From the NCBI GenBank assembly GCA_002483265.1, contig DLHO01000022.1, forward strand, positions 18,308 to 82,307: a DNA stretch of 64,000 bases, given 5' to 3'. A program made the translations under genes and the position numbers. The stretch is from Flavobacteriales bacterium UBA7666 (lineage in GTDB: Bacteria; Bacteroidota; Bacteroidia; Flavobacteriales_D; Crocinitomicaceae). The notes beneath the pieces were generated by a model, which was given only the letters and a program-made list of their open reading frames with translations, was not told where the DNA came from and searched no databases. Each line of letters starts with the position of its first letter. The stretch's first letter is position 1. Of the stretch, positions 43,745 to 62,932 are shown piece after piece.

Positions 43745-44650
43745 TTAGTTGTTTGTATTCCTGGGATGATACGTCAAAATAGCCTCCCGCAAAAAACGTT
43801 GGTCCAAATGCGTATAAATTTCTGTTGTGGTGATGTTTTCATGTCCAAGCATGTCCTGAACGGCACGTAAATTGGCTCCGCCTTCAATCAGGTGTGTTGC
43901 AAAGGAATGCCTGAAAGTATGTGGACTGATTTTTTTCTTGATTCCTGCAACTTCTGCTAATCGCGTGATGATGGTATAAATCATAATGCGCGTCAACTGA
44001 GCACCACGCCGGTTCAGGAAAACGATTGCCTCACTTCCCTTTTTTATCGGGACATTTTCCCGGTCATTTTCCGCATAAAAGGTAACTTCTTCAATCACGC
44101 TTGGGCTCACAGGAACCAAACGTTCTTTGTTTCCTTTTCCAATTACGCGTATAAACCCTTCTTCAAAAAAACAATCTTCAAATCTCAATGAAACCAATTC
44201 GCTTACCCGCAGTCCACAGCTGTAAAGTGTTTCCAGGATAGCTTTGTTTCGCTGACCTTCATTCGAACTTAAATCAATTGCTGCGATTAATGCATCAATC
44301 TCTTCTAAGGTTAATACCTCAGGCAGCTTTCTGCCAATTTTGGGCAACTCCAGGTTTTCAGAAGGATCGTCTTTTCGAATATCCTCTTGCAGTAAAAAAT
44401 CAAAAAATTGTTTCCAACCGCTGATAATACGAGCTTGAGAACGCGCGCTTAATCCCATGTCATATAACTCAGCGATAAATTGTTTTAAATGTCCGGTTTG
44501 AATGTGCTCGGGAGAAAGTGTGTAAGATTCACAAAAGTCGCGTAACTTAGCAACATCTTGCTGATAGGCAAAAATGGAGTTTTCGGCTAAACTGCGTTCT
44601 ATCTTAAGATAATGAACAAATTGTTTAATATATAGTTCCCAGTTTTTCAA
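43745..44650 (-). CDS. xerD: Site-specific tyrosine recombinase XerD
   Basis: SARSQARIISG, LYSCGLRVSEL, GKGNKER, HTFRHSFATH and LGHENITTTEIY motifs; TTG start. Confidence 0.9.
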   Translation of the reverse strand: MKNWELYIKQFVHYLKIERSLAENSIFAYQQDVAKLRDFCESYTLSPEHIQTGHLKQFIAELYDMGLSARSQARIISGWKQFFDFLLQEDIRKDDPSENLELPKIGRKLPEVLTLEEIDALIAAIDLSSNEGQRNKAILETLYSCGLRVSELVSLRFEDCFFEEGFIRVIGKGNKERLVPVSPSVIEEVTFYAENDRENVPIKKGSEAIVFLNRRGAQLTRIMIYTIITRLAEVAGIKKKISPHTFRHSFATHLIEGGANLRAVQDMLGHENITTTEIYTHLDQRFLREAILTYHPRNTNN

Positions 44651-45084
44651 TGATGCGTATTCTAATTCTCAATGGCCCGAATTTAAATCTTTTAGGAACA
44701 CGAGAGCCTGAAATTTATGGAAATCGTACTTTTTTGCAGGTTTTGGAAGAGTTGAAAAAGAATTTTCCCGGTGAGATCGATTACATTCAAAGCAATGTGG
44801 AAGGTGAATTAATCAATGCACTTCACGACTCAAAACACGATGGAATCATACTAAATGCCGGAGGTTATTCGCACACCAGCGTAGCTATCCGCGATGCCAT
44901 TTCTGGAATTCAGGTTCCGGTTGTAGAAGTTCATATCAGTAACCTGGCGCAGCGCGAAGAATTCCGCCATAACTCATTCATTACAGCTGTCTGTGAAGGT
45001 TCCATCATGGGCTTCGGAATGGAAAGCTATCGTTTGGGATTGGAATGGTTTAAGGGAAATCCGAGAGGGAAAATCGGGTACTAG
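44650..45084 (+). CDS. aroQ: Type II 3-dehydroquinate dehydratase
   Basis: LNGPNLNLLGTREPEIYG, QSNVEG, NAGGYSHTS and EVHISN motifs. Confidence 0.97.
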   Translation: MMRILILNGPNLNLLGTREPEIYGNRTFLQVLEELKKNFPGEIDYIQSNVEGELINALHDSKHDGIILNAGGYSHTSVAIRDAISGIQVPVVEVHISNLAQREEFRHNSFITAVCEGSIMGFGMESYRLGLEWFKGNPRGKIGY

Positions 45085-45367: not shown

Positions 45368-45964
45368 TTAACAACAATCTTCACCCTTTTGAATTGGCGG
45401 ACATTTTACAGTTCCGTAACTGCAATAAACACAGCAATCACCTTTCAATGGTTTGAGTACAGTTTTACAATTTTCACACTCGTAAAAGTAAGAACAAGCA
45501 TCGGTTGGCATAATTTCATCTTTCCTGTATCCGCAATTCGGACAAGTTATTGTAGAGTTTAATTCTACTTCTTCCGATTCACAGCAACGACCATGCAATC
45601 TGTGTCGGTAATAATCCACGATTGTTGCAATCAATAAACCAAGCATTCCTGCATAAAGGAAATATACCCAGTATTTGCTATCGTTGAAATGGTAACCGTA
45701 AAATATAAGAATAGCGCTTGGTACTGCAATTAGTACGGGGTAAAGACATCCGTGTTTTCGACGTGAAATAAAAAAACCAACAAGTGAAACTATGACCGTT
45801 ATTTGAAAAACCCACATTGTCCAACCCCCGAAAACCTCGAAACTCCCTAAACCGAGAGCAGAAGCGGCAAGTGCAAATATTGGAAAACAACAAGGTGAAA
45901 GGATTGCTACCAACAGCATTCCAATTACACCCCAGTTACTTAGATTTTTCCCTCTACTTCTCAC
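45368..45964 (-). CDS. merC: MerC-like membrane protein fused to a GDCCVxC metal-binding domain
   Basis: PCCFPIFALAASALGLG resembles MerC CAACFPALASFGAAIGLG; 4 TM helices; C-terminal STITCPNCG...MPTDAC...CENC...GDCCVYCSYG. Confidence 0.75.
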   Translation of the reverse strand: MRSRGKNLSNWGVIGMLLVAILSPCCFPIFALAASALGLGSFEVFGGWTMWVFQITVIVSLVGFFISRRKHGCLYPVLIAVPSAILIFYGYHFNDSKYWVYFLYAGMLGLLIATIVDYYRHRLHGRCCESEEVELNSTITCPNCGYRKDEIMPTDACSYFYECENCKTVLKPLKGDCCVYCSYGTVKCPPIQKGEDCC

Positions 45965-45975
45965 AATTTCGAATA

Positions 45976-46329
45976 TTATTCCTCTCCTTTACAACAACCG
46001 TCCCGTTGCTTATACCCGTTCGGATCAGCTTTCACTTCATCCGCATCAAAACCGCGTAGTGATATTTCCTTACGGATTTTATCAGGAGTTATTTTCTTCG
46101 TCCAGTACACAACGGTTGTTGTTTGGTCTGCTTCGTTATAAGTTACTAGTTGAATCCCTTTTACGAAGACCAAATCTCCTTCCAGTTTCCCTCCACACGT
46201 TTCGCAAACTTTGCAATGATCGCAAGTGTTCGGTGTTTTAATAGTAATGGTTTGTCTTTTCTGCTCTTTCTGTGCGAGAAGTACTTGAGACGCAAATAAG
46301 AATGCTATAAATAAGGATGTTTTAATCAT
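45976..46329 (-). CDS. Periplasmic heavy-metal-associated (HMA/MerP-like) protein
   Basis: Signal peptide ending LA|Q, CDHCKVCETC motif, C-terminal GYKQRDGCCK. Confidence 0.8.
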   Translation of the reverse strand: MIKTSLFIAFLFASQVLLAQKEQKRQTITIKTPNTCDHCKVCETCGGKLEGDLVFVKGIQLVTYNEADQTTTVVYWTKKITPDKIRKEISLRGFDADEVKADPNGYKQRDGCCKGEE

Positions 46330-46335
46330 GATCGT

Positions 46336-46845
46336 TTATTTTTTAAGTTTTACTAATGCTTCGTATAAAAGGTCTTCATCACCAGGTGCATAATTATTTC
46401 GGGAATAAACAATTTCACCATTTTCGTTTATCAGAAAAGTATGTGGCGTATTGTTCACCCCCATTGCTCGTTTGAAATCACTATTCGAATCCATCAAAAC
46501 TAAGAATTCCCAGCCATTTGCATTTACCAATGTGGGGACATTGTTCTTTGTTTTTTCATCGTCGAGTGATACGGCAACAATAGTAACTCCTGTTTCTTCC
46601 TGCCAATCGGAATAGAGGTCGCTTAAAGTTCCCATTTCTCTTTTGCAGGTTGGACACCATGATGCCCAAAACGTTATAATAATCGGTCCTTTAATACCTA
46701 AAGAACCCGTATTGACCTGTTCACCGTCCATTGTTCTCAAAGAAACGGATGGAAGTTTTTTCAACTCGGTATTTGCTGTCCCGTTTTGTGCAAAGGAGAC
46801 TAAGCCTATCATGAATACCGCGATTGCTAATATGTGTTTTGTCAT
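46336..46845 (-). CDS. TlpA family thiol-disulfide reductase
   Basis: Signal peptide, FWASWCPTC and NNTPHTFLI motifs. Confidence 0.9.
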   Translation of the reverse strand: MTKHILAIAVFMIGLVSFAQNGTANTELKKLPSVSLRTMDGEQVNTGSLGIKGPIIITFWASWCPTCKREMGTLSDLYSDWQEETGVTIVAVSLDDEKTKNNVPTLVNANGWEFLVLMDSNSDFKRAMGVNNTPHTFLINENGEIVYSRNNYAPGDEDLLYEALVKLKK

Positions 46846-46895
46846 AGCTATTTCAATTATTCTAAATTAAACTTTTACTTCGGTAACGCGAGTGT

Positions 46896-48911
46896 CTATT
46901 GAATTCTCATTCTTTGGATTCTAACCGCATTTAAAATCGCCAATAAAGCAACTCCAACGTCTGCAAAAACGGCTTCCCAAAGCGTTGCAATTCCTCCTGC
47001 TCCCAACACTAGAACGATTACTTTTACTCCCATTGCAAGAATGATATTTTGCCAAACAATTTTCTTGGTGATTCGTCCGATTTTTATTGCTCTGACGATT
47101 TTTGAGGGTTCGTCGTTTTGAATCACAATATCTGCTGTTTCAATGGTGGCATCGCTTCCCAAACCACCCATGGCAATTCCTGCATCTGCCAATGCAATTA
47201 CGGGTGCATCGTTCACGCCATCACCCACAAACGCAAGAATCCTGTTTTGGTACTTCAAAGCCTGTACTTTATCCACTTTGTTTTCGGGAAGTAAATCACC
47301 AAAAGCATCGTCAATACCTAGTTTCTTGGCAACCTTATCCACTACACTTTGCTTATCTCCTGAAAGCATAACCGTTTTGATTCCTAAGCTGTGCATTTCG
47401 GTTATTGCCTGTTTTGCATCCTTCTTGATTTCATCTGCGATGGTTATATATCCCGCATATTTTCCATCAATGGCAACTACGACAATGGTATCGACTACTT
47501 TTTCAATTTCGGCAGGATAGTCGATATCGAATTTCTTCAACAATTTCAGGTTTCCAGCCATTACATCTTTTCCACCAATCTTACCTCGTAAGCCATGTCC
47601 TGAAATCTCTTTTACTTTTTCAGCTTCTACACCTTTTATAGCACCACCTGCATAGTCAACTACTGCTGTTGCAATTGGATGAGTTGATTTACTTTCAATG
47701 ATGGCTGTAAGTCTTACGAGTTCTTTTTCGGTTATGCCCTCCGTAACTATCTCCTGAACTTTGAAAACACCTTTGGTGAGGGTTCCCGTTTTGTCCATAA
47801 CAACGGTATTGATCTTCGTCATAACGTCGAGGTAATTAGAGCCTTTGAACAGGATTCCATTTCGTGAAGCCAAGCCAATTCCACCGAAGTAACCGAGCGG
47901 AATCGAAATCACTAAAGCACACGGACAAGAAATAACTAGAAATACCAATGATCGGTAGAGCCATTCTTTAAACTGGTAATCAGAAACGAATAAATACGGA
48001 AGCAAACAAATTGCAATGGCAAGAAAGACCACAATCGGAGTGTAAACCTTCGCAAATTTGGAAATGAATAATTGGGTTGGTGCTTTTCGGCTTGTAGCAT
48101 CCTGAACCATCTCCAATATTTTAGACAATTTACTGTCTTTGAACAAAGCTGTAACCTGAATGTCGGAAACGGAATGAAGGTTAATCATTCCTGCCAATAC
48201 GGTATCGCCTTTGCCTTTCGTATCGGGTTTACTTTCGCCTGTTAATGCAGCAGTATTGAATGAGGCAGATTCGGAAACCAATTTCCCATCCAATGCTACT
48301 TTCTCACCAGATTTCACCTGAATTATTTCATCAATTTGAACTTCTGATGGCGAAACCGTTTTTAACTCTCCTTCTCGCAAAACATTCACCGTATCAGGAC
48401 GAACATCGAGCAATGCTTTAATGCTTCTTTTAGCTCGTGCTACGGCTAATGACTGAAACAATTCTCCAACAGAATAGAACACCATCACGGCAACTCCTTC
48501 GGAATATTCACCGATAAAAAATGCGCCTCCCGTGGCGATTGTCATTAGAAGGAATTCTGAGAAAAAAGCTCCTTTTGCAATGGATTTCACCGCATCAATC
48601 ATCACAGGTAAACCAACTGGAACGTAAGCAACCAAGTACCAAATGAGTTTGATATAACCTTCGAAAAAAGCAGGTTTAAATACTTGTTCGAACAAAATCC
48701 CTGTCAATAACAGCACAAAACTTATTGTTGCAGGAATATATTCCTTCCATGGTGCAGATTCGATTACAATTGCTTCTTTTTTCGGATGAGCCGTTTCATT
48801 ATTTAAATATGGTTCTCCTGTTGAAGCATCTATTTTTTCTTCTAGCGAGCAACACGTCATTCTGCCTTGAGCATCGTAGGTATGGACGTGATTTGGATCT
48901 TTATTAATCAT
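46896..48911 (-). CDS. cadA: Zn/Cd/Pb-exporting P1B-2 ATPase (CadA/ZntA)
   Basis: TGES, SCPCALVIS, DKTGTLT and GDGVNDAP; conserved Lys (GVK) and ADVG in the last TMs; N-terminal CCSLEEKI. Confidence 0.9.
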   Translation of the reverse strand: MINKDPNHVHTYDAQGRMTCCSLEEKIDASTGEPYLNNETAHPKKEAIVIESAPWKEYIPATISFVLLLTGILFEQVFKPAFFEGYIKLIWYLVAYVPVGLPVMIDAVKSIAKGAFFSEFLLMTIATGGAFFIGEYSEGVAVMVFYSVGELFQSLAVARAKRSIKALLDVRPDTVNVLREGELKTVSPSEVQIDEIIQVKSGEKVALDGKLVSESASFNTAALTGESKPDTKGKGDTVLAGMINLHSVSDIQVTALFKDSKLSKILEMVQDATSRKAPTQLFISKFAKVYTPIVVFLAIAICLLPYLFVSDYQFKEWLYRSLVFLVISCPCALVISIPLGYFGGIGLASRNGILFKGSNYLDVMTKINTVVMDKTGTLTKGVFKVQEIVTEGITEKELVRLTAIIESKSTHPIATAVVDYAGGAIKGVEAEKVKEISGHGLRGKIGGKDVMAGNLKLLKKFDIDYPAEIEKVVDTIVVVAIDGKYAGYITIADEIKKDAKQAITEMHSLGIKTVMLSGDKQSVVDKVAKKLGIDDAFGDLLPENKVDKVQALKYQNRILAFVGDGVNDAPVIALADAGIAMGGLGSDATIETADIVIQNDEPSKIVRAIKIGRITKKIVWQNIILAMGVKVIVLVLGAGGIATLWEAVFADVGVALLAILNAVRIQRMRIQ

Positions 48912-49007
48912 CTTATTTTCTTTAAAAAGGGCAAAGACCTCGGAGATGAAAAAGTCATTACTTGATGTTAAAAGCCTCTAAGACTTTGCCCAAATTTTCA
49001 GTTCTAT

Positions 49008-50234
49008 TTAATGTTCGTGTTCTCCGCCACCTTCGCTTTTCAACAAATGGCTTTGAATGTAGTAAGCGCCTTTCAATACAATTTGCGCATTCGCAGGAAT
49101 ATCTTGTAAGATTGTCACCTGAACATATCCCAATTGGGTAGTTCCTGTCTTTACCTCGATTCGTTGGAAGTGGTAAGTCTTCCCTTCAGTATGTTCATGA
49201 CCTTCTTCTTTTGCATGTTCTTCCAGTACAAAGATAAATTCTCTTCCGTCTGCTTTTACCACCGCATCAACTGGCAAAGCTTTTACATTATTTAAGCCTA
49301 CATCGATCAACGCATTTACATACATTCCCGGAATTAAAATCTGCTTGTCGTTTAGAATATCTGCATGAACCGCAACCGATTTGGTTTCATTTTCAAAGGC
49401 TTTCCCAATGCTAAAAATCTTTCCTTTAATTTCTACATTGTCCTGATTGGTCAGAATGAAGCGAACGGTTTGACCCGTTTTTACTTTTTGAAGGTCTTTC
49501 TCATATACCAATAAATCGACGTGCATTTTCGAATTGTCTACGATAGTGAACATGGGCTTTCCTGGTTCGGCATTCGTTCCAATTTTTACGTTCACTTCCG
49601 TAATGTATCCGCTGATTGGAGCTTTTACCGACATGGTAGAAATTGCACCGCCCGAACCCGACAAATTCAAGGTACTTAACTGTTTCTTCAATGAAGCATT
49701 CCGTGCTTTTTCTGTTTCGTAGTCTGATTTTGCACGTTGCAAGGCTTTCTTAGAATTGACGTTTTCATCATTCAAGGTTTTCTGACGTTCGTATTCGCTT
49801 GTCAGGTATTCCAAGTTGCTTTTAGACGTTAAGTATGCTTCCTGAAGTTTGGTGAATTCCAAGCTTTCGATAACCGCAATGGTTTGTCCTTTCTTCACAA
49901 ACTGACCTTCAATTACATTGATACTGCGCACAACTCCTGTAACAAGAACCGAAACATCTGCTTGGTTCTGCGGAGGGAGTTTTGTGTACCCATTTGCATT
50001 GATTACGGCACTCAAATTTTTCATTTCAAACGTTCCCAGTTCAATGTCTGATGCATTAAATTGAGCCTGATTCAATTCAACCTCTTTGGCGGTGATTGCT
50101 TCGCCTTCATGTTCTTCATGTGCTTCCTCTGTTTTTTCAGGTTCACTTTCACCTCCTGAGTAGGAAATCACACAAACAACCACCACTGTTAAAACAGCTA
50201 CGATTGCTATATATAGAATGTTTTTTCTTTTCAT
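49008..50234 (-). CDS. czcB: RND efflux periplasmic adaptor (CzcB-like)
   Basis: N-terminal anchor, His-rich HEEHEGE, barrel-sandwich hybrid, LIPGMYVNA and C-terminal GGGEHEH. Confidence 0.9.
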   Translation of the reverse strand: MKRKNILYIAIVAVLTVVVVCVISYSGGESEPEKTEEAHEEHEGEAITAKEVELNQAQFNASDIELGTFEMKNLSAVINANGYTKLPPQNQADVSVLVTGVVRSINVIEGQFVKKGQTIAVIESLEFTKLQEAYLTSKSNLEYLTSEYERQKTLNDENVNSKKALQRAKSDYETEKARNASLKKQLSTLNLSGSGGAISTMSVKAPISGYITEVNVKIGTNAEPGKPMFTIVDNSKMHVDLLVYEKDLQKVKTGQTVRFILTNQDNVEIKGKIFSIGKAFENETKSVAVHADILNDKQILIPGMYVNALIDVGLNNVKALPVDAVVKADGREFIFVLEEHAKEEGHEHTEGKTYHFQRIEVKTGTTQLGYVQVTILQDIPANAQIVLKGAYYIQSHLLKSEGGGEHEH

Positions 50235-50244
50235 CTTCTTCGAA

Positions 50245-53200
50245 TTATTGATTCAATAAGTATTGTAAATTGATAACTGCCTGATTGTAATTCAGAACAG
50301 CGCTCAAATAATTGGATTGCACGTCTAAGGATGTTTGAATTCCCTGAATGAACTCCACGTAGGAAATATCCCCGTTTTGGTAGCTTTTTCTTACGTTATC
50401 AGTGATATTTTTAGCAGAGGGCAAAGCCGAACTTTCATAATATTCCACCAAAGATTGATAGGTGAGTAACTGCTCTATCTGCTGTTCAAACTGGCTTTTC
50501 AATTGGGTGTGCAGGTATTCGGTGTTTTTCTGGTGAACCTGAACGGCTGTTTCTGCGGATCTGACTTTTGCACTACTGCTTCCAACGAAAATAGGAACGG
50601 AAACTCCAAAGGTTACGCCCTGAAATCTTGGCGCACCGTTGTAATAAACAGGCTGACCGTTCACGTCCTGATTTCCTGTAAGGGACTGAATGAAATAGCC
50701 CACTTTTAAGTCTGGAAGCATGGTGGATTTTTGCAGACGTTTGGAAGCTATCGCCTTTTGAACCTCCTGCATTGCCAATTCCATTTGCGGATTCTCACGC
50801 AATGCCGTGCTGTCGGTTACTGAAAGAGCGGGTAATACCACAAATTCACTTTCAGCAATGACGAAATCTGTTTGCAGGCTCATGTATGCTTTTAACCTCG
50901 ATTTTTCCATTGAAATCAGGGCTTCGGTTTGCTTAATCTGTTGTTGCAATTCCTGTTGTTTCACAATTGAAGTAGTCGATTCCAAAGGACTTACATCTCC
51001 TGCTTCGAACCTGATTTTTGCAGCCCGAACAAATTGAAGCAAAATGCTGTCTTGCTGTTTCAACACCTGATTGCGTTCCATCAAATACAACAAACTGTTC
51101 CACGACTGTCGAATGTTCAGGGTCATTTGTTGTTTGGTGAGGTCTAAACTCAGTTCACTGCTTTTTATGTTGGCATCAATCACGTCTTTTCGTGCGCCAA
51201 ATTCGAATGGATTGAATCCTTGCGAGATAGCATAATTCTGATCGAAAGCACGGGTATTGTACTGACCAAGCATTCCTGTGAGTTCTGTTTTTGGTAACTC
51301 GAAAGCCGTTGGTTTTAACTGGCTCTGTGAGATTACTTCCAACTCTCCTGCTTGTACCTGCTGATTGTTTTTCAATCCTGCTTCAATGGCAGATTGCAGG
51401 GTTAGCGTGGGAACGTCTTGTGATTGTGCAAAACCTGCAAACAATGTGAATCCAATAATCAATGTAACAGCTTTTGCACCACCTTGTTTGATTTTACGGG
51501 ACAACCCTTTTTCAAAATAGAAATAGAGGATGGGAAGTACAATCAGGGTCAATAAGGTAGCAGAGATCAATCCTCCGATCACGACTGTTGCCAACGGTTT
51601 TTGAACTTCAGCTCCTGCACTGGTACTCAATGCCATTGGTAAGAAGCCTAAAGATGCAACTGCGGCTGTGAGGATTACAGGGCGTAAACGCACTTTCGTT
51701 CCTTCATGGATTCGGTGAACTACATCATTCATACCCTCAGATTTTAATTGATTGAAATAACCGATCAGAACAATACCGTTTAGAACTGCTACTCCAAACA
51801 GGGCAATAAATCCAACACCTGCGGAAATACTGAAAGGCATATCTCGTAACCAAAGTGCAAAGACACCTCCAATAGCGGAGAATGGAATTGCGGTAAAGAT
51901 CAGTAACGATTGTTTCATGGAACGGAACGTAAAATAGAGTAATACAAAAATCAAGAGCAAGGCAACTGGAACAGCAATGGAAAGTCGTGCTGATGCTTCT
52001 ACCAAGTTTTCAAACTGTCCGCCATAAGTAACATAATAACCTGCGGGTAATTTCAGTTTTTTATCCAATTTTTGCTGAATTTCGTCTACCACACTTTTAA
52101 CGTCCCGACCTCTTACGTTGAAGCCGACTACAATTCTACGTTTTCCGTCTTCACGGCTAATCTGCATCGGTCCTGGTTCGTAATCAATGTCTGCAACCTG
52201 TTCCAATGGAATCTGACTTCCCGAAGGAAGCGTAATAAACAGCGTTTTCAAGTTTGAAATATCGCTTCTGCTTTCCGCAGCTAAACGCAACACCATGTCG
52301 AAACGTTTTTCACCCTCGTAAACAACGCCTGTTTTCTCTCCTGCGAACCCAATACGAACTACCTTGTTCAAATCGCCTACGTTCAATCCGTAAAGTGCCA
52401 GTTTATCTTTGTTATACCGAACCGAAATTTGAGGTAGTCCAGCCACTCGTTCGGCTTTGGCATCGGCAACACCGTTGATACTTTTAATGATGTTCAGTAC
52501 TTCGTCGCCTTTACTCACGAGCATGTCCAAATCTTCCCCGTAGATTTTTACGGCTACATCACTTCGAACACCCGTCATCAATTCGTTGAATCGCATTTGA
52601 ATAGGCTGTGAAAATTCGGTGGTAACTCCTGGAATATCAGCTAATGCTTCTTCCATTTTCTCCATGAGTTCTTCTTTCGTTTCCGCAGAAGTCCATTCGT
52701 CTCTGTCTTTCAGAAGGATAATCATATCTCCTGCTTCCATCGGCATGGGATCGGTAGGAATTTCAGCACTCCCGATTTTGGTAACAATCATTTTGATTTC
52801 AGGAAACTTGCTTTTCAGGATCTTTTCCGCTTTGGTGGTAGATTCAATTTCTTGTGAAAGCGAACTTCCCGAAGCAATAATCAAGTGCGTTGCAATGTCT
52901 CCTTCATCCAACGTAGGAATGAATTCTCCACCCATTTTACCGAACAGGACAAACGCTATCACTAACAAACCAATGGCAATCGATACGATCAACGATTTTG
53001 CCTGCAATGCTTTGGTTAATGCAGGTTGATACACTCTTTGCAATGCATCAATAATACGGTCGCTGATGTTTTTCTTATGACCTGTTTGTTTTTTCAAGGC
53101 TAGTGAAGCCATCATGGGAACATAAGTCAGTGATAAAAGGAACGCTCCGAGAATGGCAAACGAAACGGTTTGTGCCATTGGTCCGAACATCTTTCCTTCA

Positions 53201-54603
53201 ATACCAACCAAGGCAAGGATTGGCAAATAAACAATCAGGATAATGATTTCACCGAACGCTGCACTGCTTCTGATTTTTGACGAAGCTGTGTAAACTTCTG
53301 CATCCATTTCCTCTGCGGAAAGGATTCTACTTATTTTATCGCTTTGAAGTCGGTGAATGATCGCTTCTACGATAATTACCGCACCATCTACAATTAATCC
53401 GAAATCAATTGCCCCCAAACTCATTAAATTCCCGCTCACACCAAACAGGTGCATCATGCTAACGGCAAACAACAATGAAAGCGGAATGACCGAAGCCACC
53501 ACCAAACCTGCCCGCCAGTTCCCCAACAGCAATACGAGAATGAAAATAACAATCAATGCTCCTTCAATGAGGTTGGTTTGAACCGTTCCAATGGCTTTGT
53601 CTACCAATTTGGTGCGATCCATGAATGCTTCAATTTCAACTCCTTCGGGCAGAGATTTTTTAATCTGCTCCATTTTGTCTTTCACACGGGAAACGACTTC
53701 GGCGCTGTTTTCGCCTTTGAGCATCATCGCCATACCGCTTACTTCTTCACCGTGTCCGTCTTTGGTAACTGCTCCAAAACGAATACTGCTTCCCATCTGT
53801 ACTGTTGCCACATCACGAATTAGGATTGGAATGCCGTTTTGGTTTTTTACAACGATTTTGCTGATGTCCTCGAGACTCGTAACCATACCCACACCCCGAA
53901 TGAAATAGGCATACGGTTTTTTGTCGATGTATGCACCACCCGTGTTTTCATTGTTCTTTTCCAATGCGTCGAATACCTCGCTGATAGTGGTATTCATACT
54001 TTTCAGTTTGTCGGGCTGAATGGCAATTTCATATTGCTTCAAACTTCCACCAAGAGTATTTACTTCTGCAACGCCTGGTGTACCCAATAATTGAGGTCTG
54101 ATGATCCAATCCTGAATGGTACGAAGGTCGGTAGCATTGTACTTGTCTTCGTAGCCTTTTTTCGGGAAAACAACGTATTGGTAAATCTCGCCCAAACCTG
54201 TACTTACTGGCGCAATTTCGGGACTTCCCAAACCTTTAGGGATGGTGTTTTCTGCTTCTTTTAAGCGTTCATTGATTTGGGCACGTGCCCAGTAAATGTC
54301 TACATCTTCTTCAAAAACAACGGTTACCACACTCAATCCGAAACGACTGATGGAACGTAACTCTACCACCTTCGGGATTGGTTTTACCGAAATCTCGATT
54401 GGATAGGTAATGAATTGTTCCACTTCCTGCGTGGAAAGTGTGGGTGAAGATGTAATAATTTGCACCTGATTGTTGGTTATATCAGGTAATGCATCGATTG
54501 GGAGTCTGCTAAGTGAATAGCTTCCTACCGCAATCAATGCCAAGGTGAATAAGCCAATGATGAACTTATTCTTGATACTAAATTGAATGACTTTATCTAA
54601 CAT
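50245..54603 (-). CDS. czcA: CzcA-family heavy-metal RND transporter fused to a C-terminal TolC-like outer-membrane factor
   Basis: LPIDALPDITNNQVQI, GAIDFGLIVDGAVIIVE (CzcA acidic signature), RLRPVILT and QKPLATVVIGG; about 390-aa OMF domain after the last TM. ORF track starts at 54681. Confidence 0.92.
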   Translation of the reverse strand: MLDKVIQFSIKNKFIIGLFTLALIAVGSYSLSRLPIDALPDITNNQVQIITSSPTLSTQEVEQFITYPIEISVKPIPKVVELRSISRFGLSVVTVVFEEDVDIYWARAQINERLKEAENTIPKGLGSPEIAPVSTGLGEIYQYVVFPKKGYEDKYNATDLRTIQDWIIRPQLLGTPGVAEVNTLGGSLKQYEIAIQPDKLKSMNTTISEVFDALEKNNENTGGAYIDKKPYAYFIRGVGMVTSLEDISKIVVKNQNGIPILIRDVATVQMGSSIRFGAVTKDGHGEEVSGMAMMLKGENSAEVVSRVKDKMEQIKKSLPEGVEIEAFMDRTKLVDKAIGTVQTNLIEGALIVIFILVLLLGNWRAGLVVASVIPLSLLFAVSMMHLFGVSGNLMSLGAIDFGLIVDGAVIIVEAIIHRLQSDKISRILSAEEMDAEVYTASSKIRSSAAFGEIIILIVYLPILALVGIEGKMFGPMAQTVSFAILGAFLLSLTYVPMMASLALKKQTGHKKNISDRIIDALQRVYQPALTKALQAKSLIVSIAIGLLVIAFVLFGKMGGEFIPTLDEGDIATHLIIASGSSLSQEIESTTKAEKILKSKFPEIKMIVTKIGSAEIPTDPMPMEAGDMIILLKDRDEWTSAETKEELMEKMEEALADIPGVTTEFSQPIQMRFNELMTGVRSDVAVKIYGEDLDMLVSKGDEVLNIIKSINGVADAKAERVAGLPQISVRYNKDKLALYGLNVGDLNKVVRIGFAGEKTGVVYEGEKRFDMVLRLAAESRSDISNLKTLFITLPSGSQIPLEQVADIDYEPGPMQISREDGKRRIVVGFNVRGRDVKSVVDEIQQKLDKKLKLPAGYYVTYGGQFENLVEASARLSIAVPVALLLIFVLLYFTFRSMKQSLLIFTAIPFSAIGGVFALWLRDMPFSISAGVGFIALFGVAVLNGIVLIGYFNQLKSEGMNDVVHRIHEGTKVRLRPVILTAAVASLGFLPMALSTSAGAEVQKPLATVVIGGLISATLLTLIVLPILYFYFEKGLSRKIKQGGAKAVTLIIGFTLFAGFAQSQDVPTLTLQSAIEAGLKNNQQVQAGELEVISQSQLKPTAFELPKTELTGMLGQYNTRAFDQNYAISQGFNPFEFGARKDVIDANIKSSELSLDLTKQQMTLNIRQSWNSLLYLMERNQVLKQQDSILLQFVRAAKIRFEAGDVSPLESTTSIVKQQELQQQIKQTEALISMEKSRLKAYMSLQTDFVIAESEFVVLPALSVTDSTALRENPQMELAMQEVQKAIASKRLQKSTMLPDLKVGYFIQSLTGNQDVNGQPVYYNGAPRFQGVTFGVSVPIFVGSSSAKVRSAETAVQVHQKNTEYLHTQLKSQFEQQIEQLLTYQSLVEYYESSALPSAKNITDNVRKSYQNGDISYVEFIQGIQTSLDVQSNYLSAVLNYNQAVINLQYLLNQ

Positions 54604-54700
54604 GATGAATAGTCTAATCGTAAAACAATAGTCGGCAAACAAATTGCACGACTGCACAAGACATTCAAAGCCCTGCAACAATTATCTAATAAACGATTAG
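54604..54700 (-). promoter_or_regulatory. Structured leader-czcA intergenic region, putative translational control element
   Basis: 8-bp stem 54693-54700/54614-54621 containing the leader stop codon, plus an internal AGTCG-T-GCAA/TTGC-CGACT hairpin. Confidence 0.45.
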
Positions 54701-55089
54701 CTCAATTTTGGCGGTTGCCAAATAGCGGAATGAAATTCGGAAAATATGGATTGGTAAGGAGGCACAGGTGATTTTTGTACAACTAGCAGATGATCCTGAG
54801 AAATCACTTCCAATGTGGCTTTCTTTTCCAAAACAAATGTCAGAGAAACCAACACATGATCGTGGTTTGTCGGGCAGTTGTCTTGTTCGTGATGCTCCTT
54901 GCTTTTGTGATGACCTTCACTTAAATGCTCACCAACGAAATCTATAAAACTCAATTGGTGATGTTCTTCGTTGTGATGGTTGTAATGCGAAATGAATTTG
55001 GGAATAAAAGAAAAGGCATGAGCTGTTTCTCCGGGAAACATAATCACCAGAATCAGAAACAGTATGCTTGTCTTTTTCAAAAGATTCAT
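54697..55089 (-). CDS. His-rich exported leader-like protein ending IWQPPKLS
   Basis: Hydrophobic N-terminus; HYNHHNEEHH and HHKSKEHHEQDNCPTNHDH; TATCTTCG box upstream supports the start at 55089 (ORF track 55128). Confidence 0.8.
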   Translation of the reverse strand: MNLLKKTSILFLILVIMFPGETAHAFSFIPKFISHYNHHNEEHHQLSFIDFVGEHLSEGHHKSKEHHEQDNCPTNHDHVLVSLTFVLEKKATLEVISQDHLLVVQKSPVPPYQSIFSEFHSAIWQPPKLS

Positions 55090-55159
55090 TGTTAGCGAAG
55101 ATAGTGATTTTTTGATTTGATGAGACACTTGTTATAAAGAAGGGATTGAGTAGGTTTTT

Positions 55160-55207
55160 AATAAAAAGACAACTGCCCACCAATTGGTGGGCAGTTGTCT
55201 TTTTATT
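55160..55207. terminator. 48-bp perfect palindrome, bidirectional terminator-like
   Basis: AATAAAAAGACAACTGCCCACCAA|TTGGTGGGCAGTTGTCTTTTTATT. Confidence 0.8.
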
Positions 55208-55271
55208 GTTTCGTGACCCCTGATGAGTCGGTTCTAACTTTCCAATAGAAGATTTAGAACCGACTTTAGAA

Positions 55272-56696
55272 TCAATTCTTCAATAATTGAATTGTTCTAG
55301 TTGTTCCTTCGAATTTCATTTCAAGAAAATATACTCCTTGACTCAAAAGCGAATTATCTATTTCAATGACACCATTGGTACGGTTGAAAACACTTGTATG
55401 TGCAATCCCAAGTCCATCAAACAATTGTAATTCAACGTTTTCATCAATTGATGAAATAGCCCATACTGTATTGGATGGATTCGGATAGACAATTGGATTA
55501 AATTTACTTGTTTCATCCAATCCAACTGACTGTTCAACCGTTCCTATCAAGTACTTCACATCATTATCATCACTGTACACAACATGAAATTTACCGTTTG
55601 AATATTCAAGATCAGGACGTGTTTGACTTCCGCTAAATGTTGCAGTCAGCGTATCAATGACAACACCTAGACCGCTTGCACCTGTAACTGAGCTGGTGAA
55701 AAAGACTCTTGGAGTTCCGGCATCCGAACCTTGCCAAACCACTCCTAACGTATCACCACTCCCTGCAATAATCGGATAGTTTTGCGTTCCCATTCCCATA
55801 GGGAATATTTGGAATTGAATTCCATTCTGTTGAGTTGTAAGATTTGTTGTTCCAACATATACCTTACCGTTACTCATCCATGTTGAAACAAGAGAATCTC
55901 CGCTGATTATATTAGACGGTCCGCTTGAAGGACAAGACATAATCATCCAATCCGTTTCATCGATTTCTGATGAAACCGGATAACTTGCACTACCATCTGT
56001 GGAATAAGAAGCCCACATATTGCGAATGTTATTGTCATTGTTCCTGTAAGTCACCACATGCTGATTACCGTTTGCAATGATTGTTGCAGGACAGCAATCA
56101 CAAACAGTTCCAACCGCCCCAAGCGATGGGGTTATTGATGGCATGTAACTGCTTCCACCATTCATAGATCTTGCAACTGCATATTCGGCGTTACCAAAAC
56201 CCGAGTCAAGGCGCATAAAAGCAACAACTGGATTCCCACCATTACCTACTGCAATTGTTGGAAAACGTGGAACATCCGTTCCAATTTGATCCACACGAAC
56301 AGTGTCTTGAAAAGTCATTCCTCCATCCAGTGATCTAACTGTATATACTTTACTTGTTTGACTGAAATCGGTACTGAAGGTTACAAAAACTGTGTCTCCG
56401 GAAGATGCAATTTCTGACCCTGCCCAATTAGCTATAAAGGGCATTACACCTGTAGGACTTATTGTCAATGGCATATTGAAAGATGCTCCATTCCAGCGAG
56501 CGGTATAAATTTTATTGTTGTTATCATTCATCCACGAGACGACTGGTACATCATTGTTAGTTAAAGTGAGCCTTGGATAAATGTTGTTATACATGCTTCC
56601 CATTGCAACAGTAGTGGGAGGATTCCATGTAATAGTCTGGGCAGAAGCCTTAATTGATAAAGCCGACAAAGCCAGCACTAAGTAATATTTTTTCAT
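55272..56696 (-). CDS. T9SS-sorted BNR/sialidase-like beta-propeller with CDCC and WxxxxCPxxGP motifs
   Basis: Signal peptide ending ASA|Q; Asp-box repeats RSLDGGMTF, RSMNGGSSY and YSTDGSASY; C-terminal YPNP...GVYFL sorting domain. Confidence 0.85.
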   Translation of the reverse strand: MKKYYLVLALSALSIKASAQTITWNPPTTVAMGSMYNNIYPRLTLTNNDVPVVSWMNDNNNKIYTARWNGASFNMPLTISPTGVMPFIANWAGSEIASSGDTVFVTFSTDFSQTSKVYTVRSLDGGMTFQDTVRVDQIGTDVPRFPTIAVGNGGNPVVAFMRLDSGFGNAEYAVARSMNGGSSYMPSITPSLGAVGTVCDCCPATIIANGNQHVVTYRNNDNNIRNMWASYSTDGSASYPVSSEIDETDWMIMSCPSSGPSNIISGDSLVSTWMSNGKVYVGTTNLTTQQNGIQFQIFPMGMGTQNYPIIAGSGDTLGVVWQGSDAGTPRVFFTSSVTGASGLGVVIDTLTATFSGSQTRPDLEYSNGKFHVVYSDDNDVKYLIGTVEQSVGLDETSKFNPIVYPNPSNTVWAISSIDENVELQLFDGLGIAHTSVFNRTNGVIEIDNSLLSQGVYFLEMKFEGTTRTIQLLKN

Positions 56697-56747
56697 GGTA
56701 GTAATTTTTACTAATGTAAATGAATTGTTTGTATTTGTATTCTGGTC

Positions 56748-57251
56748 TTATTTATCCAGTTCTTTTAGTTTTCGTTTCATGAAGGCAATTTCTTTTTCCT
56801 GGGCTTCAATAATTTCTTTTGCCAGTTCCCGTATTTCGGGATCACTAAGATCAGTTTGTTTAACCATCAGCACTGCTGCTGCGTGGTGTGGAATCATGGA
56901 CTTTAGAAATTGTTTATCAGAAACAGCTGTCTGCTTTCGAATCCCAAACCAAAACGCTGCCAAAGCAACGAATCCAATAACTACAATCGTCGCGTTGACC
57001 TTCCGATTGCGGTACATTTTTCCCATAAGAAGCATCTCGATAACAACCATTGCGGCAGTCATGAGACCCGCCATATAAAATTGATTGATATTCGGAATAG
57101 CATTTTCAAAGCGATCCACCATGGCGTACATCAGTATGTACATCGCAAAGAAAGACAGGATAATCATTAGAATGAACTTTTTATAAGACATCTGATGATG
57201 ATTTTGGTGTTTGGCGTGTTGATCTTGCTGTTCATGCATTTGCTCTTTCAT
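56748..57251 (-). CDS. DUF305 (CopM-like) membrane protein
   Basis: His/Gln-rich N-terminus, TM helices and FLKSMIPHHAAAVLM...IIEAQEKEI. Confidence 0.88.
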   Translation of the reverse strand: MKEQMHEQQDQHAKHQNHHQMSYKKFILMIILSFFAMYILMYAMVDRFENAIPNINQFYMAGLMTAAMVVIEMLLMGKMYRNRKVNATIVVIGFVALAAFWFGIRKQTAVSDKQFLKSMIPHHAAAVLMVKQTDLSDPEIRELAKEIIEAQEKEIAFMKRKLKELDK

Positions 57252-57272
57252 AATCGTATATTTTAGTATTAA

Positions 57273-59492
57273 TCAATACGTAAACGTAAATCCTCCACCA
57301 AACCCCATGTCACTATCATAATGAGCAGATAGAGAAAAAGACTTGTTCAAGACATACTTTAAACCAGCCATATATTCAAAATCCGAATTGTACATCAGCC
57401 CCAAGCGTAAACGCTTCGTTAGGGGAATATCTTCCCGCATCAATTGCAAACGTAATTTTCCATCGGTATCAACCCTTGCATCGGCTATGATGAGCATAGG
57501 CAAAGTGTATTGCAAACCAAAACATATTACCCCACGTTGGTCTTTTGTATTTGTCTGCCCAAACAGATTACGTTCTACTTCGCCCATTTCCATTTTACGA
57601 TACCGCCAGTCAAATCCAACATAAGGGAAGAACCATTGCATTTTTCCGATATATCGACCAAAGTGCGCTTCTGTTTCATAGCCATGCATATCGTTATAAC
57701 CCAATCTCCATTCTGCCTGCAAGTTCCAACGAGTGTTTTGCAACATCATTTCACCGTCATTTCCATTGGTTGCAAAGTCATTTTGAAACATAAAGTGAAA
57801 TTCACGGTCGTCGGCATATAATTTTCTCAGTGCCTTTTTCGGATCGGGCAATTGTGGATTGGGAGGTGAATTCTCGTAGGTAAAAATGCGTCCCATTCCA
57901 CTCATCATGTGATATAGTATGTGACAATGGAAAAACCAATCTCCACTTTCCGTAGCTGCAAATTCAATTGTATCGGTTTCCATAGGCATGATGTCCAATA
58001 CATTCTTCAATGGAGAATACTCACCATTACCGTTAACGATGCGGAAGAAATGTCCGTGCAGGTGCATCGGGTGGCGCATCATCGAATTATTGTAGAGGAT
58101 CATCCGCACATTCTCACCTTTCTTTATCAGTATTTTATCCGTTTCGGAAACCGTTTTGTTGTTAATACTCCAAACATAACGGTTCATATTCCCAGTGAGC
58201 TCAAAATTGTATGTGGTTGTGGGGACATTAGGCAAAGTAGTCTTTACAGGCGAACGGAGCATATTGTAATTCAATGTTACAATTTCTGAAAGCTGATTAC
58301 TCTTATACTGACTGCCATCGGTCATATTCATGTGCTTCATCTTCTGCTTTTTCTTTTTCTTCGAGCCAGTAATTTCAGGATACATCACCACATTCATGTC
58401 CATTTGTTGAAGGCTCATATTCATGCCCATATCGTCCAGATTCCCATCCATCTTAATCATGTCGTTCATCATTTGCATACCTTCAAAATACTTCAATGGT
58501 TCTAATGGTGAGATCAATTGCTTAACACCCTTTCCGAGCCATAGTGACGTGCTTCTTATTCTGTCTTCGGAAGTTGCTTGTAGTTCGAAGGAAGTGTTAT
58601 CCGAAGGAATGGTTATAATCACATCATAGGTTTCTGCCACAGCAATGATAAAGCGGTCAACTTCCACTGGAACAACATCCATTCCGTCACTTGCTATAAC
58701 GCTCATTTTACCCCCTGAATAGCGCATCCAAAAATAGGATGACGAACCACCGTTGATGATTCTTATTCGAACTTTATCACCAGCTTTGAAGAGTGGTGCA
58801 TTATCATCTAATTTACCATTAGTAAGAAGCTTATCATAGTACACATCGCTCACATCCATGGCGAGCATTCGCTTCCATTCGTTTCCAAATTTTGTTTTAA
58901 GACTTCCTGCTCCAATTGCATCGGCATAACTTTGAACCGCACCTTTTTGAAGATTAGCTTTTTTGATTGCTGACCAGTCATTAGCCATGTGCAATCTCCG
59001 GTGCACCTCAAATGGTTTCATGTCTGTCCAATCACTTAAAACAACCGTATATTCAAGCATTTTGGGTTCATCTCTTTTGTGAATAATAAACGCCCCATAC
59101 ATACCACCCTGTTCCTGCAAGCCCGTATGTGAGTGATACCAATAGGTTCCGTTTTGAACGATCGGAAATTTGTACAAATGAGTTGTTCCTGCTTTAATTG
59201 GTGCTGTTGTCAGATAGGGTACGCCGTCTTGTTCATTTGGTAAGATGATTCCGTGCCAATGGATGGAAGTTTCTGTTTTCAACTCATTGTGTACCCATAT
59301 TTCAGCAGTGTCTCCTTCCGTAAATTGCAATTCAGGCATTGGAATACTTCCGTTAACGGAGTAAGCATGTCGCTCTTTCCCCGTGAAATTAACAGTGGTA
59401 TCCCTGACGTATAGATCGTATCGCACCGTTTTTTGGGCAAAAGTTGCCAAGTGCATCAATACCGCCACTATCATTAACATTCGTTTTTTCAT
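57273..59492 (-). CDS. Multicopper oxidase with a C-terminal beta-barrel-like (CopB/PcoB-like) domain
   Basis: IHWHG, YWYHSH, HPMHLHGH and HCHILYHM copper motifs; Met-rich insert; barrel-like C-terminus. ORF track starts at 59501. Confidence 0.92.
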   Translation of the reverse strand: MKKRMLMIVAVLMHLATFAQKTVRYDLYVRDTTVNFTGKERHAYSVNGSIPMPELQFTEGDTAEIWVHNELKTETSIHWHGIILPNEQDGVPYLTTAPIKAGTTHLYKFPIVQNGTYWYHSHTGLQEQGGMYGAFIIHKRDEPKMLEYTVVLSDWTDMKPFEVHRRLHMANDWSAIKKANLQKGAVQSYADAIGAGSLKTKFGNEWKRMLAMDVSDVYYDKLLTNGKLDDNAPLFKAGDKVRIRIINGGSSSYFWMRYSGGKMSVIASDGMDVVPVEVDRFIIAVAETYDVIITIPSDNTSFELQATSEDRIRSTSLWLGKGVKQLISPLEPLKYFEGMQMMNDMIKMDGNLDDMGMNMSLQQMDMNVVMYPEITGSKKKKKQKMKHMNMTDGSQYKSNQLSEIVTLNYNMLRSPVKTTLPNVPTTTYNFELTGNMNRYVWSINNKTVSETDKILIKKGENVRMILYNNSMMRHPMHLHGHFFRIVNGNGEYSPLKNVLDIMPMETDTIEFAATESGDWFFHCHILYHMMSGMGRIFTYENSPPNPQLPDPKKALRKLYADDREFHFMFQNDFATNGNDGEMMLQNTRWNLQAEWRLGYNDMHGYETEAHFGRYIGKMQWFFPYVGFDWRYRKMEMGEVERNLFGQTNTKDQRGVICFGLQYTLPMLIIADARVDTDGKLRLQLMREDIPLTKRLRLGLMYNSDFEYMAGLKYVLNKSFSLSAHYDSDMGFGGGFTFTY

Positions 59493-59549
59493 CACATACA
59501 ATTTACGTCATTTAACCCTTTATTCCTTTATGAAAGGAGACTTTTAAGA

Positions 59550-59768
59550 CTATTTATCGTTGATTCGTTCGATCTGGAAGCCTGCTTGTTTTACTTTTTC
59601 TTCCACTTCTTCTGCCGTCAACTTATGTGAATTCACAGTAAGGATTTTAGCAGGAGTTAGGATGTCTACGTTCCATTCTTCCGGTGTAAGTTGGTCGTTC
59701 AGAAACGGTGTCACTTTTACGAGACATCCCGCACATTTGATTGTTGTTTTAAATTGAAGTGTTTCCAT
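59550..59768 (-). CDS. Small HMA copper chaperone (CopZ-like)
   Basis: FKTTIKCAGC motif, 72 aa. Confidence 0.88.
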   Translation of the reverse strand: METLQFKTTIKCAGCLVKVTPFLNDQLTPEEWNVDILTPAKILTVNSHKLTAEEVEEKVKQAGFQIERINDK

Positions 59769-59799
59769 GATATTTTATATTGTTTAATGATTACTAAGG

Positions 59800-59857
59800 C
59801 AAAGTTTGTCCTTTTAATGCGCTTTGTCTTTATAGTATTTACTAAACGATTTATGAT
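59800..59857 (-). promoter_or_regulatory. ATAA-N17-ATAA-N25-CTTTG promoter, putatively AraC-activated
   Basis: Minus-strand ATAA at 59851-54 and 59830-33; CTTTG at 59800-04. Confidence 0.6.
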
Positions 59858-59859
59858 TT

Positions 59860-62289: not shown

Positions 62290-62307
62290 GATTTTCAATT
62301 TATACTG

Positions 62308-62365
62308 CAAAGTTCAGTTGAAAACGATGGGTATGCGTTATGATATTTCCTGATAGAGTTATGAC
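62308..62365 (-). promoter_or_regulatory. ATAA-N17-ATAA-N25-CTTTG promoter of copA, putatively AraC-activated
   Basis: TCATAAC repeated at 21-bp spacing (+ strand GTTATGA at 62337-43 and 62358-64); CTTTG at 62308-12. Confidence 0.65.
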
Positions 62366-62367
62366 TT

Positions 62368-62928
62368 TTACAAATGATCCAACGATTTCCGTTTAGATGC
62401 TTTTATGCTTTTGAAATGACTGGGGGTAAGCCCTACAACTTTCTTAAACTGAGTACTCAAATAGGCAACACTGCTATAACCCATTTGATCGGCAATCTCA
62501 CTGAGAGAAAGCTCATCGTAAACAAGCAATTCTTTCACACGTTCCAAACGTTGAGCTATGTAAAACTTTTCGATAGTTGTTCCTTCAACCTCTGAAAACA
62601 GGTTGCTCAAATAGTTATACTCCATGGGAATATACTGCATCAAGTAATCGGACACATTCATATTCAATTGTTCTTCCGAATGATGCACCAATTCCACCAC
62701 CAAGTTTTTGACCCGTTCAATCAGTCTGCTCTTTTTATCATCAATAAGCTCAAAGCCTAATTCGAGGAAACGTGTATTTATACGATCTTTCTCCTCGTTA
62801 GTCAAATCTTCTTTCAATTCCACTTCACCCAATTCCACCGTAAGGGGTTGAAGTCCGAGCTGTTCTAGCTCAGACTTCACCACCATCTTACAACGGTTGC
62901 ATACCATGTTTTTAATATAAATCTTCAT
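62368..62928 (-). CDS. AraC family regulator with an N-terminal HMA-like CxxC
   Basis: IKNMVCNRC N-terminus; YNYLSNLFSEVEG and LSEIADQMGYSSVAYLSTQFKK double HTH. Confidence 0.93.
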   Translation of the reverse strand: MKIYIKNMVCNRCKMVVKSELEQLGLQPLTVELGEVELKEDLTNEEKDRINTRFLELGFELIDDKKSRLIERVKNLVVELVHHSEEQLNMNVSDYLMQYIPMEYNYLSNLFSEVEGTTIEKFYIAQRLERVKELLVYDELSLSEIADQMGYSSVAYLSTQFKKVVGLTPSHFKSIKASKRKSLDHL

Positions 62929-62932
62929 TTAC

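Follow-up and report, generated by a model that had tools for sequence, protein, structure and literature searches.

A CzcA-type efflux pump and a TolC-like outer-membrane factor encoded in one reading frame are joined by a signal-peptide-like linker: a probable signal peptidase I precursor widespread in Bacteroidota

Resistance-nodulation-division (RND) pumps and outer-membrane channels are a textbook case of separate synthesis and targeting. In the window analysed here, i.e. the whole 64,000-nucleotide stretch of Flavobacteriales bacterium UBA7666 (GenBank assembly GCA_002483265.1, contig DLHO01000022.1, positions 18,308 to 82,307 of the forward strand), one gene encodes both: a heavy-metal efflux pump of the CusA/CzcA type is followed, in the same frame, by an outer-membrane factor (OMF) of the TolC/CzcC type, and the two are joined by a linker with the anatomy of a signal peptide. 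Comparison of sequences indicates that the product is very probably a single precursor that would be resolved by signal peptidase I into an inner-membrane pump and an outer-membrane channel. The fusion design is widespread in Bacteroidota and, as far as our literature search shows, undescribed.

The frame of the fusion gene is single, uninterrupted and open across 50245..54681 on the minus strand, giving 1478 amino acids in the translation of the window. From the conserved ATG at 54603, where the protein starts MLDK as in its homologues, the open reading frame (ORF) 50245..54603 (-) encodes a fusion protein of 1452 amino acids and ends with the stop codon at 50245..50247 (-); residue numbers below refer to this protein, apart from those of Pfam matches, which follow the 1478-residue frame. 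Residues 1-1033 (51505..54603, -) constitute the RND pump domain, with 12 transmembrane (TM) helices and last residues ...LPILYFYFEKG on the cytoplasmic side. Pfam ACR_tran matches residues 32-1056 of the longer frame with 964 bits (model positions 2-1020 of 1021), and NCBIfam TIGR00914 (CusA/CzcA) matches at full length with 1235.3 bits (model positions 1-1036 of 1051), well above its curated cut-off of 701.45, which places the domain among the heavy-metal efflux (HME) RND pumps. The charged proton-relay motif of TM4 (DFG..DGA..VE), which we take to be family-defining for HME-RND pumps, is present in the translation as AIDFGLIVDGAVIIVEA, and its residues D400, D406 and E413 are invariant across the 118 homologues described below. 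The nearest solved relatives of the pump are ZneA (4K0E, 678 bits) and CusA, and a search of solved structures returned none containing the fusion. Unlike in CusA, the methionine triad of the metal site (M573/M623/M672) is absent from the window pump at the two positions that could be aligned, where M573 is matched by His and M623 by Ala, M672 lying beyond the aligned fragment. His and Ala at these positions make a divalent-cation pump of the Zn/Cd/Co type likelier than a Cu(I) pump; the substrate is thus probably divalent cations, whereas Cu(I)/Ag(I) specificity appears unlikely.

The linker comprises residues 1034-1061, LSRKIKQGGAK-AVTLIIGFTLFAGF-AQS, and is followed by QDVPTLTLQSAIEAGLKNN. 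Its n-region, LSRKIKQGGAK (residues 1034-1044; 51472..51504, -; first codon TTG), holds five basic and zero acidic residues; its h-region, AVTLIIGFTLFAGF (residues 1045-1058; 51430..51471, -), contributes to an apolar run of 15 residues and reaches a best 10-residue Kyte-Doolittle mean of 2.95; and its c-region, A-Q-S (residues 1059-1061; 51421..51429, -), has Ala at -3 and Ser at -1 as placed by the family alignment. The next residue, Gln1062 (51418..51420, -), is invariant in homologues and is the predicted +1 residue of the mature OMF, where it would be expected as pyroglutamate. In the uncut precursor the stretch spanning the junction would read ...FAGFAQSQDVPTLTLQSAIEAGLK, also written ...FAGFAQSQDVPT.... 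A positive n-region, an apolar h-region of ~10-16 residues, small residues at -3 and -1 and Gln at +1 are the traits of a Sec type I signal peptide, and all are found here; the N-terminal position of such a peptide is not, as the linker starts at residue 1034, after 12 TM helices. By its anatomy, the linker is hence signal-peptide-like in function, though no canonical N-terminal signal peptide. RND pumps end on the cytoplasmic side after TM12, as seen in the AcrB, CusA and ZneA structures. A cytoplasmic pump C-terminus together with the basic N-side of the linker implies that the latter would insert N-in/C-out, and such an insertion would expose A-Q-S on the periplasmic side of the membrane, which is where signal peptidase I cuts. 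A cut two residues upstream, FA↓QSQ (arrows mark cleavage points), was considered and dropped, because the invariant Gln of the family aligns with the second Gln of the window, which leads to the site AQS↓Q. An earlier note on this DNA, made from its letters and translated frames, had proposed the same site and a junction at about 51420; the latter is exact, the Gln1062 codon being 51420..51418, the former coincides with the invariant Gln column, and the strings that it quoted (RKIKQGGAK, AVTLIIGFTLFAGF, AQS↓QDVP and TLTLQSAIEAGLKNN) are all in the translation.

Full-length homologues of 1445-1452 amino acids number in the thousands. We aligned 118 fused homologues of 1431-1467 amino acids, 52-95% identical to the window protein over its C-terminal 503 residues, i.e. 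over the last helices of the pump, the linker and the OMF. Their linkers form 107 different strings, with a column identity of only 0.25-0.6. At +1, Gln is present in 118/118; at -1 stand Ala (94), Ser (20), Gly (3) and Thr (1), and at -3 Ala (42), Gly (26), Thr (11), Val (10), Leu (10), Ser (10), Met (7), Cys (1) and Phe (1). The net charge of the n-region lies between +1 and +7 in all 118 homologues, as it does in 36 junctions taken from across the phylum. On this alignment the linker keeps the features of a signal peptide but not its sequence.

The same pattern extends over the phylum. An even sample of 151 genomes gave 134 best HME-RND hits, which fall into open frames of either 1429-1523 amino acids (63/134) or 1030-1131 amino acids (71/134), the gap between the two being empty. 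The fused form is present in 54 of the 151 genomes, spread over at least 20 families, and named records place it in Flavobacteriales, Cytophagales, Sphingobacteriales, Chitinophagales and Bacteroidales, in agreement with the earlier note, which had called the fusion common in Bacteroidota. Forty junctions were cut out as 361-nucleotide pieces, 37 of them readable (L014, L018 and L040 were left out, as they have no open frame with the end motif of the pump). In 36 of the 37 (17 families), the apolar core is followed by a small residue and then Gln, the linkers being otherwise unrelated, whereas among 1005 internal TM-like segments of this genome, scanned with an identical search window, 7.3% show this pair of residues; the junction motif is thus beyond chance. 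Separately, a fused gene with a GC content of 0.43 occurs in a record titled Glaciecola amylolytica (L051, CP034120.1), a gammaproteobacterial genus name. It is 76% identical to that of the window in the best aligned segment, and reflects either a mislabelled record or transfer.

The domain that follows the linker, residues 1062-1452 (391 residues; 50248..51420, -), is recognised as a TolC/CzcC-like OMF, predicted to be the mature form, by Pfam, structure prediction and Foldseek alike. It contains two OEP (PF02321) stretches, with 103.5 bits. An AlphaFold2 (AF2) model, which took in the linker and OMF only, has a predicted local distance difference test score (pLDDT) of 87.7 over the OMF and a predicted fold that is complete, containing the long helices and the beta strands typical of OMFs; in the same model the h-region of the linker is a low-confidence helix and the c-region has a pLDDT <50. 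Foldseek matched the OMF model to TolC (1EK9), CusC (3PIK), SilC (9RMM) and OprM with E 1e-16 and template-modelling scores of 0.70-0.78. Two OEP repeats and a full TolC-like fold make the domain a member of the OMF family, as had been supposed from its first residues. Judged from the model, the OMF half is a complete TolC-like protein with beta-barrel strands, for which a trimeric outer-membrane channel is predicted, and the AF2 secondary structure leaves ~7 residues between Gln1062 and the first helix of the OMF fold.

Relatives in which pump and OMF are encoded by two genes allow the linker to be compared with a conventional leader. Six split loci (L002, L003, L004, L005, L121 and L122) share the order DUF6660 - czcA - OMF - adaptor, often with a P-type ATPase, and hence have window-like neighbours. 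Pump and OMF are parted by a stop, one spare base and ATG in L002, by an ATGA overlap in L003 and L004, by spacers of 160 nt in L121 and ~1 kb in L122, and by a gene of 121 amino acids in L005 (Flavobacterium subsaxonicum). The split pumps, of ~1040 amino acids, end ~15-20 residues past TM12 and are without a 13th helix, and the split OMFs carry their own N-terminal signal peptide ending NA↓Q, TA↓Q or FA↓Q. When stand-alone OMFs were aligned with the linker and OMF of the window, the Gln1062 column was invariant in 24/24 sequences; by this alignment, the linker is homologous to the N-terminal signal peptide of the separately encoded OMF orthologues. In a maximum likelihood tree of the OMF domain, split forms nest in several positions among the fused ones, at least five state changes are required by well-supported branches, and the F. 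subsaxonicum OMF pairs with a fused protein as its sister at 100% support. Such nesting indicates that fused and split layouts interchange among close relatives, as is expected if both yield the same mature proteins. With its features kept in all 118 homologues and in 36 of 37 phylum junctions, and with its likeness to these N-terminal leaders, the internal signal peptide proposed in the earlier note stands. Two observations on the split loci may be added: the inserted gene of L005 (4634-4999) is of the 23S-rRNA-intervening-sequence type, a four-helix bundle, and several split OMF leaders (e.g. L002 6001-6100) contain the odd repeated strings LLIANCQL and LPFAICL, which look like a translated repeated DNA element at the junction.

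The genome itself offers further comparisons, as it encodes eight RND pumps, two of them fused (that of the window and a paralogue on contig 6) and six with separate OMF genes. The second, divergent CzcA-OMF fusion (C6:164533-168885, outside the window) is an intact open frame of 1479 amino acids, the linker of which reads ...FLLFSGFGFS↓QGNLLTLDQAI, i.e. ...KVKSVPNIAAVIAFLLFSGFGFS↓QGNLLTLDQAI, so that the site is kept as GFS↓Q. Among the stand-alone OMFs of the genome, 7/7 non-lipoproteins start with Gln and then ..LTLQQ.. after an obvious signal peptide, and two further ones are lipoproteins. A pattern of suitable -3 and -1 residues with Gln at +1 is found in 50% of 1368 signal-like N-termini of a crude gene set versus 5% of 1309 others, which indicates that the organism follows the Bacteroidetes Q-rule for signal peptidase I substrates (PMC5837995, PMC10653852); one signal peptidase I gene (PF10502) and one plant-type glutaminyl cyclase gene (PF05096) are encoded. 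A start with Gln, which had been put forward as usual for signal peptidase I products of the phylum, thus holds for this organism. The supplement of PMC5837995 contains the peptide pyroGlu-QEVLTLDQCR for the Tannerella forsythia 'OM efflux protein' Tanf_07615, with the leader MKQFIFLWMAVILPFCAMA, which shows that a stand-alone OMF of the phylum with this kind of N-terminal motif is cut before Gln and cyclised. Q-rule substrates including Tanf_07615 share with the window a basic n-region, an apolar core, a small -1 residue and Gln at +1, and the window counterpart of the mature end QEVLTLDQCR is QDVPTLTLQSAIE; their signal peptides, however, are N-terminal, whereas that of the window begins at residue 1034 behind 12 TM helices. 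Tanf_07615 consequently argues for cleavage of the fused protein by analogy only.

Several points weigh against resolution by signal peptidase I. The apolar run is 15 residues in the window linker and at the linker median, 14 in N-terminal signal peptides of this genome and 18 in internal TM-like segments, and the run lengths of linkers overlap those of true TM helices. The cleavage site was placed by motif counts made here rather than by a dedicated signal-peptide predictor, and one of the 37 readable junctions, L022, is without Gln (...PLKS↓EIL). The invariant Gln may also serve the OMF itself, beyond the Bacteroidota Q-rule, because two contigs from metagenome-assembled genomes labelled Gemmatimonadota (L094 and L110; GC 0.62-0.65) carry the same fusion, of 1466 amino acids, with linkers ...WALRA↓QSAPVRTLTLQQAI and ...SSLVGA↓QSASIRTVTLPEAI; the fusion thus exists outside Bacteroidota, and the Gln is kept there in ALRA↓Q and LVGA↓Q. 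Cleavage of the window protein, or of any fused member, is a step that we infer from comparative support, and full-text literature searches yielded no relevant publication on the fusion, on how it is processed or on proteomic traces of it, in line with the earlier note, which likewise knew of no demonstration. The fusion goes unmentioned in a 2021 Chem Rev review of tripartite pumps and in the Q-rule papers (PMC5837995, PMC10653852).

The overlap in apolar-run length would also suit an uncleaved 13th TM helix, i.e. a signal anchor by which the OMF stays covalently on the pump, and the hydrophobicity of the segment (Kyte-Doolittle mean 2.95) suffices for it to cross a membrane. A plain anchor, however, needs neither an invariant Gln nor an always-small -1 residue, the pump of the split orthologues does entirely without a 13th helix, and the OMF is modelled as a complete TolC-like protein with beta-barrel strands, whose barrel a tether of ~7 residues would keep well short of the outer membrane. 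The N-terminal end of a TolC-type protein lies at the equatorial belt, about halfway along the ~100-angstrom helical barrel, and in assembled pumps (TolC, AcrAB-TolC) that end is parted from the inner membrane by the periplasmic domain of the pump and the adaptor ring. Set against these known pump dimensions, the ~7 residues given by the secondary structure of the model could not bridge the distance without cleavage, and we regard the anchor as very unlikely.

Separate synthesis of the OMF by internal initiation, here at TTG 51504 (M-SRKIKQGG...), would turn the linker and OMF into an ordinary pre-protein and the fused product into a by-product. The first linker codon is indeed a possible start in an A-rich context, Bacteroidota do not depend on Shine-Dalgarno sites, and 31/118 homologues have Met in the n-region; 87/118 have none, however, no start codon is conserved, and the TTG column is Phe, which no start codon can encode, in 60/118. 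The frame is moreover open across the junction in 54/151 sampled genomes, which argues for selection on read-through translation, and a full-length product would be made anyway and would need resolution. As the start is not conserved, an internal start codon was rejected as a general mechanism at the family level; internal initiation may contribute to expression in part of the family but, on the aligned codons, cannot be the conserved mechanism, and as an account of the window gene it is at least as unlikely as the anchor. Cleavage by a different protease, or at a place other than AQS↓Q, has nothing specific in its favour and is more remote again, the conserved features being exactly those of signal peptidase I substrates in the phylum and in this genome. 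The chance that the fusion stems from faulty assembly or sequencing, or that the gene is decaying, is negligible, as no point in favour of either was found and both are refuted by the thousands of full-length homologues (1445-1452 amino acids), by the second intact fused paralogue in the genome and by the bimodal frame lengths across the phylum.

Resolution of one precursor by signal peptidase I, the reading that we prefer, agrees with the data on each sequence-level prediction that could be examined, and would proceed as follows. The gene would yield a precursor of ~160 kDa, of which the 12-helix CzcA-type pump would insert in the inner membrane and leave its C-terminus on the cytoplasmic side. 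The linker (LSRKIKQGGAK plus AVTLIIGFTLFAGF) would enter the Sec translocon N-in/C-out and bring the 391-residue OMF to the periplasm, signal peptidase I would cut after Ala-Gln-Ser1061, and glutaminyl cyclase would turn Gln1062 into pyroglutamate, giving the mature N-terminus pyroGlu-DVPTLTLQSAIEAGLK. The freed OMF would take its normal route to the outer membrane and trimerise, whilst the pump would retain the signal segment as a 13th helix; together with the adaptor, which is translated separately, the two proteins would then make up a tripartite metal efflux pump of the ordinary kind. The sequences directly show the architecture, the anatomy and conservation of the signal peptide, its homology to true N-terminal leaders and the presence of genes for the processing enzymes; translocation, cleavage, the formation of pyroglutamate and what becomes of the 13th helix are the steps that we infer. 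Pump and OMF would be produced strictly 1:1, a stoichiometry that fits the known 3:6:3 architecture of tripartite pumps. It is further conceivable, though doubtful, that synthesis of the OMF channel as the C-terminal portion of its partner transporter is obligatory in a large part of Bacteroidota, with the signal peptide kept as the 13th helix of the pump and a periplasmic C-terminus; synthesis in cis would then go beyond a 1:1 ratio and could release the OMF at the insertion site of its partner pump or act as an assembly checkpoint. If true, such an obligatory birth in cis would be a biogenesis route undescribed for any efflux pump or outer-membrane protein.

Compared with known systems, the window holds the same three components, RND pump, adaptor and OMF, as the HME-RND systems CzcCBA, ZneCAB and CusCBA of Proteobacteria. 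The latter are encoded by three genes, with an N-terminal signal or lipobox on the OMF, whereas in the window pump and OMF share one ORF with an internal signal and the order is A-C-B. In Flavobacterium and relatives, the operons with split czcA and OMF genes and an adaptor are orthologous and have the same neighbours, and their OMF N-terminus, signal peptide and A↓Q align with the window linker; a stop codon parts pump and OMF there and is absent from the fusion gene. A polytopic inner-membrane protein, an internal signal peptide and an exported protein are reportedly combined also in the FbcH cytochrome b/c1 polyprotein of Bradyrhizobium japonicum (described by Thony-Meyer and co-workers), which is said to be resolved into two subunits of one complex. 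Both FbcH products reportedly stay at the inner membrane, whereas the second product of the window gene would go to the outer membrane. A natural precursor split by signal peptidase into inner-membrane and outer-membrane proteins would be a rare bacterial polyprotein; it would explain a pump:channel ratio fixed without translational coupling in about a third of the sampled Bacteroidota genomes, and would make it simple to study how Sec deals with a large exported domain that follows 12 TM helices. As database names say only 'CusA/CzcA', surveys of resistance genes and secretomes miss the OMF half in their counts.

The fusion gene is accompanied by the remaining component of a tripartite RND system. 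A periplasmic adaptor (membrane-fusion protein, CzcB/CusB-like; HlyD_D23, and TIGR01730 with 162.6 bits) is encoded at 49008..50234 (-), beginning 10 nt after the stop of the fusion, and the same position is filled in split and fused relatives. Downstream lies a P1B-type heavy-metal ATPase with a CPC motif (46896..48911, -; Pfam E1-E2_ATPase and Hydrolase), a position kept in the split relatives L002 and L003. Directly upstream of the fusion, a small His-rich ORF (54697..55128, -) sits where split relatives carry the DUF6660 gene; it has no Pfam match even at E 0.1, and its resemblance to the DUF6660 gene of L002 is confined to the C-terminal motif Y.SI.S.F...IWQPP.L (58% identity over 19 amino acids).

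These genes belong to a metal-resistance cluster of ~18 kb (window 45368-63781), which contains the fusion and is flanked by xerD-like and aroQ-like genes at 43745-45084. The cluster encodes a MerC-like membrane protein with a Cys-rich tail, an HMA-like protein, a redoxin, the CPC-type P1B ATPase, a DUF305 protein, a multicopper oxidase, a CopA-type ATPase, an AraC-type regulator and an HMA-DUF3347 protein. The multicopper oxidase (57273-59501, -; 742 amino acids) has a C-terminal extension of ~195 residues past its last Cu-oxidase domain, which has no Pfam match and ends ...GGGFTFTY, resembling the end of an outer-membrane beta-barrel; by this ending, the protein may be another fusion of a periplasmic enzyme with an outer-membrane protein (possibly CopB-like). 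Between the pump operon and the copper genes, 55272-56696 (-) encodes a secreted protein of 474 amino acids with a Por_Secre_tail, i.e. the C-terminal sorting domain of type IX secretion.

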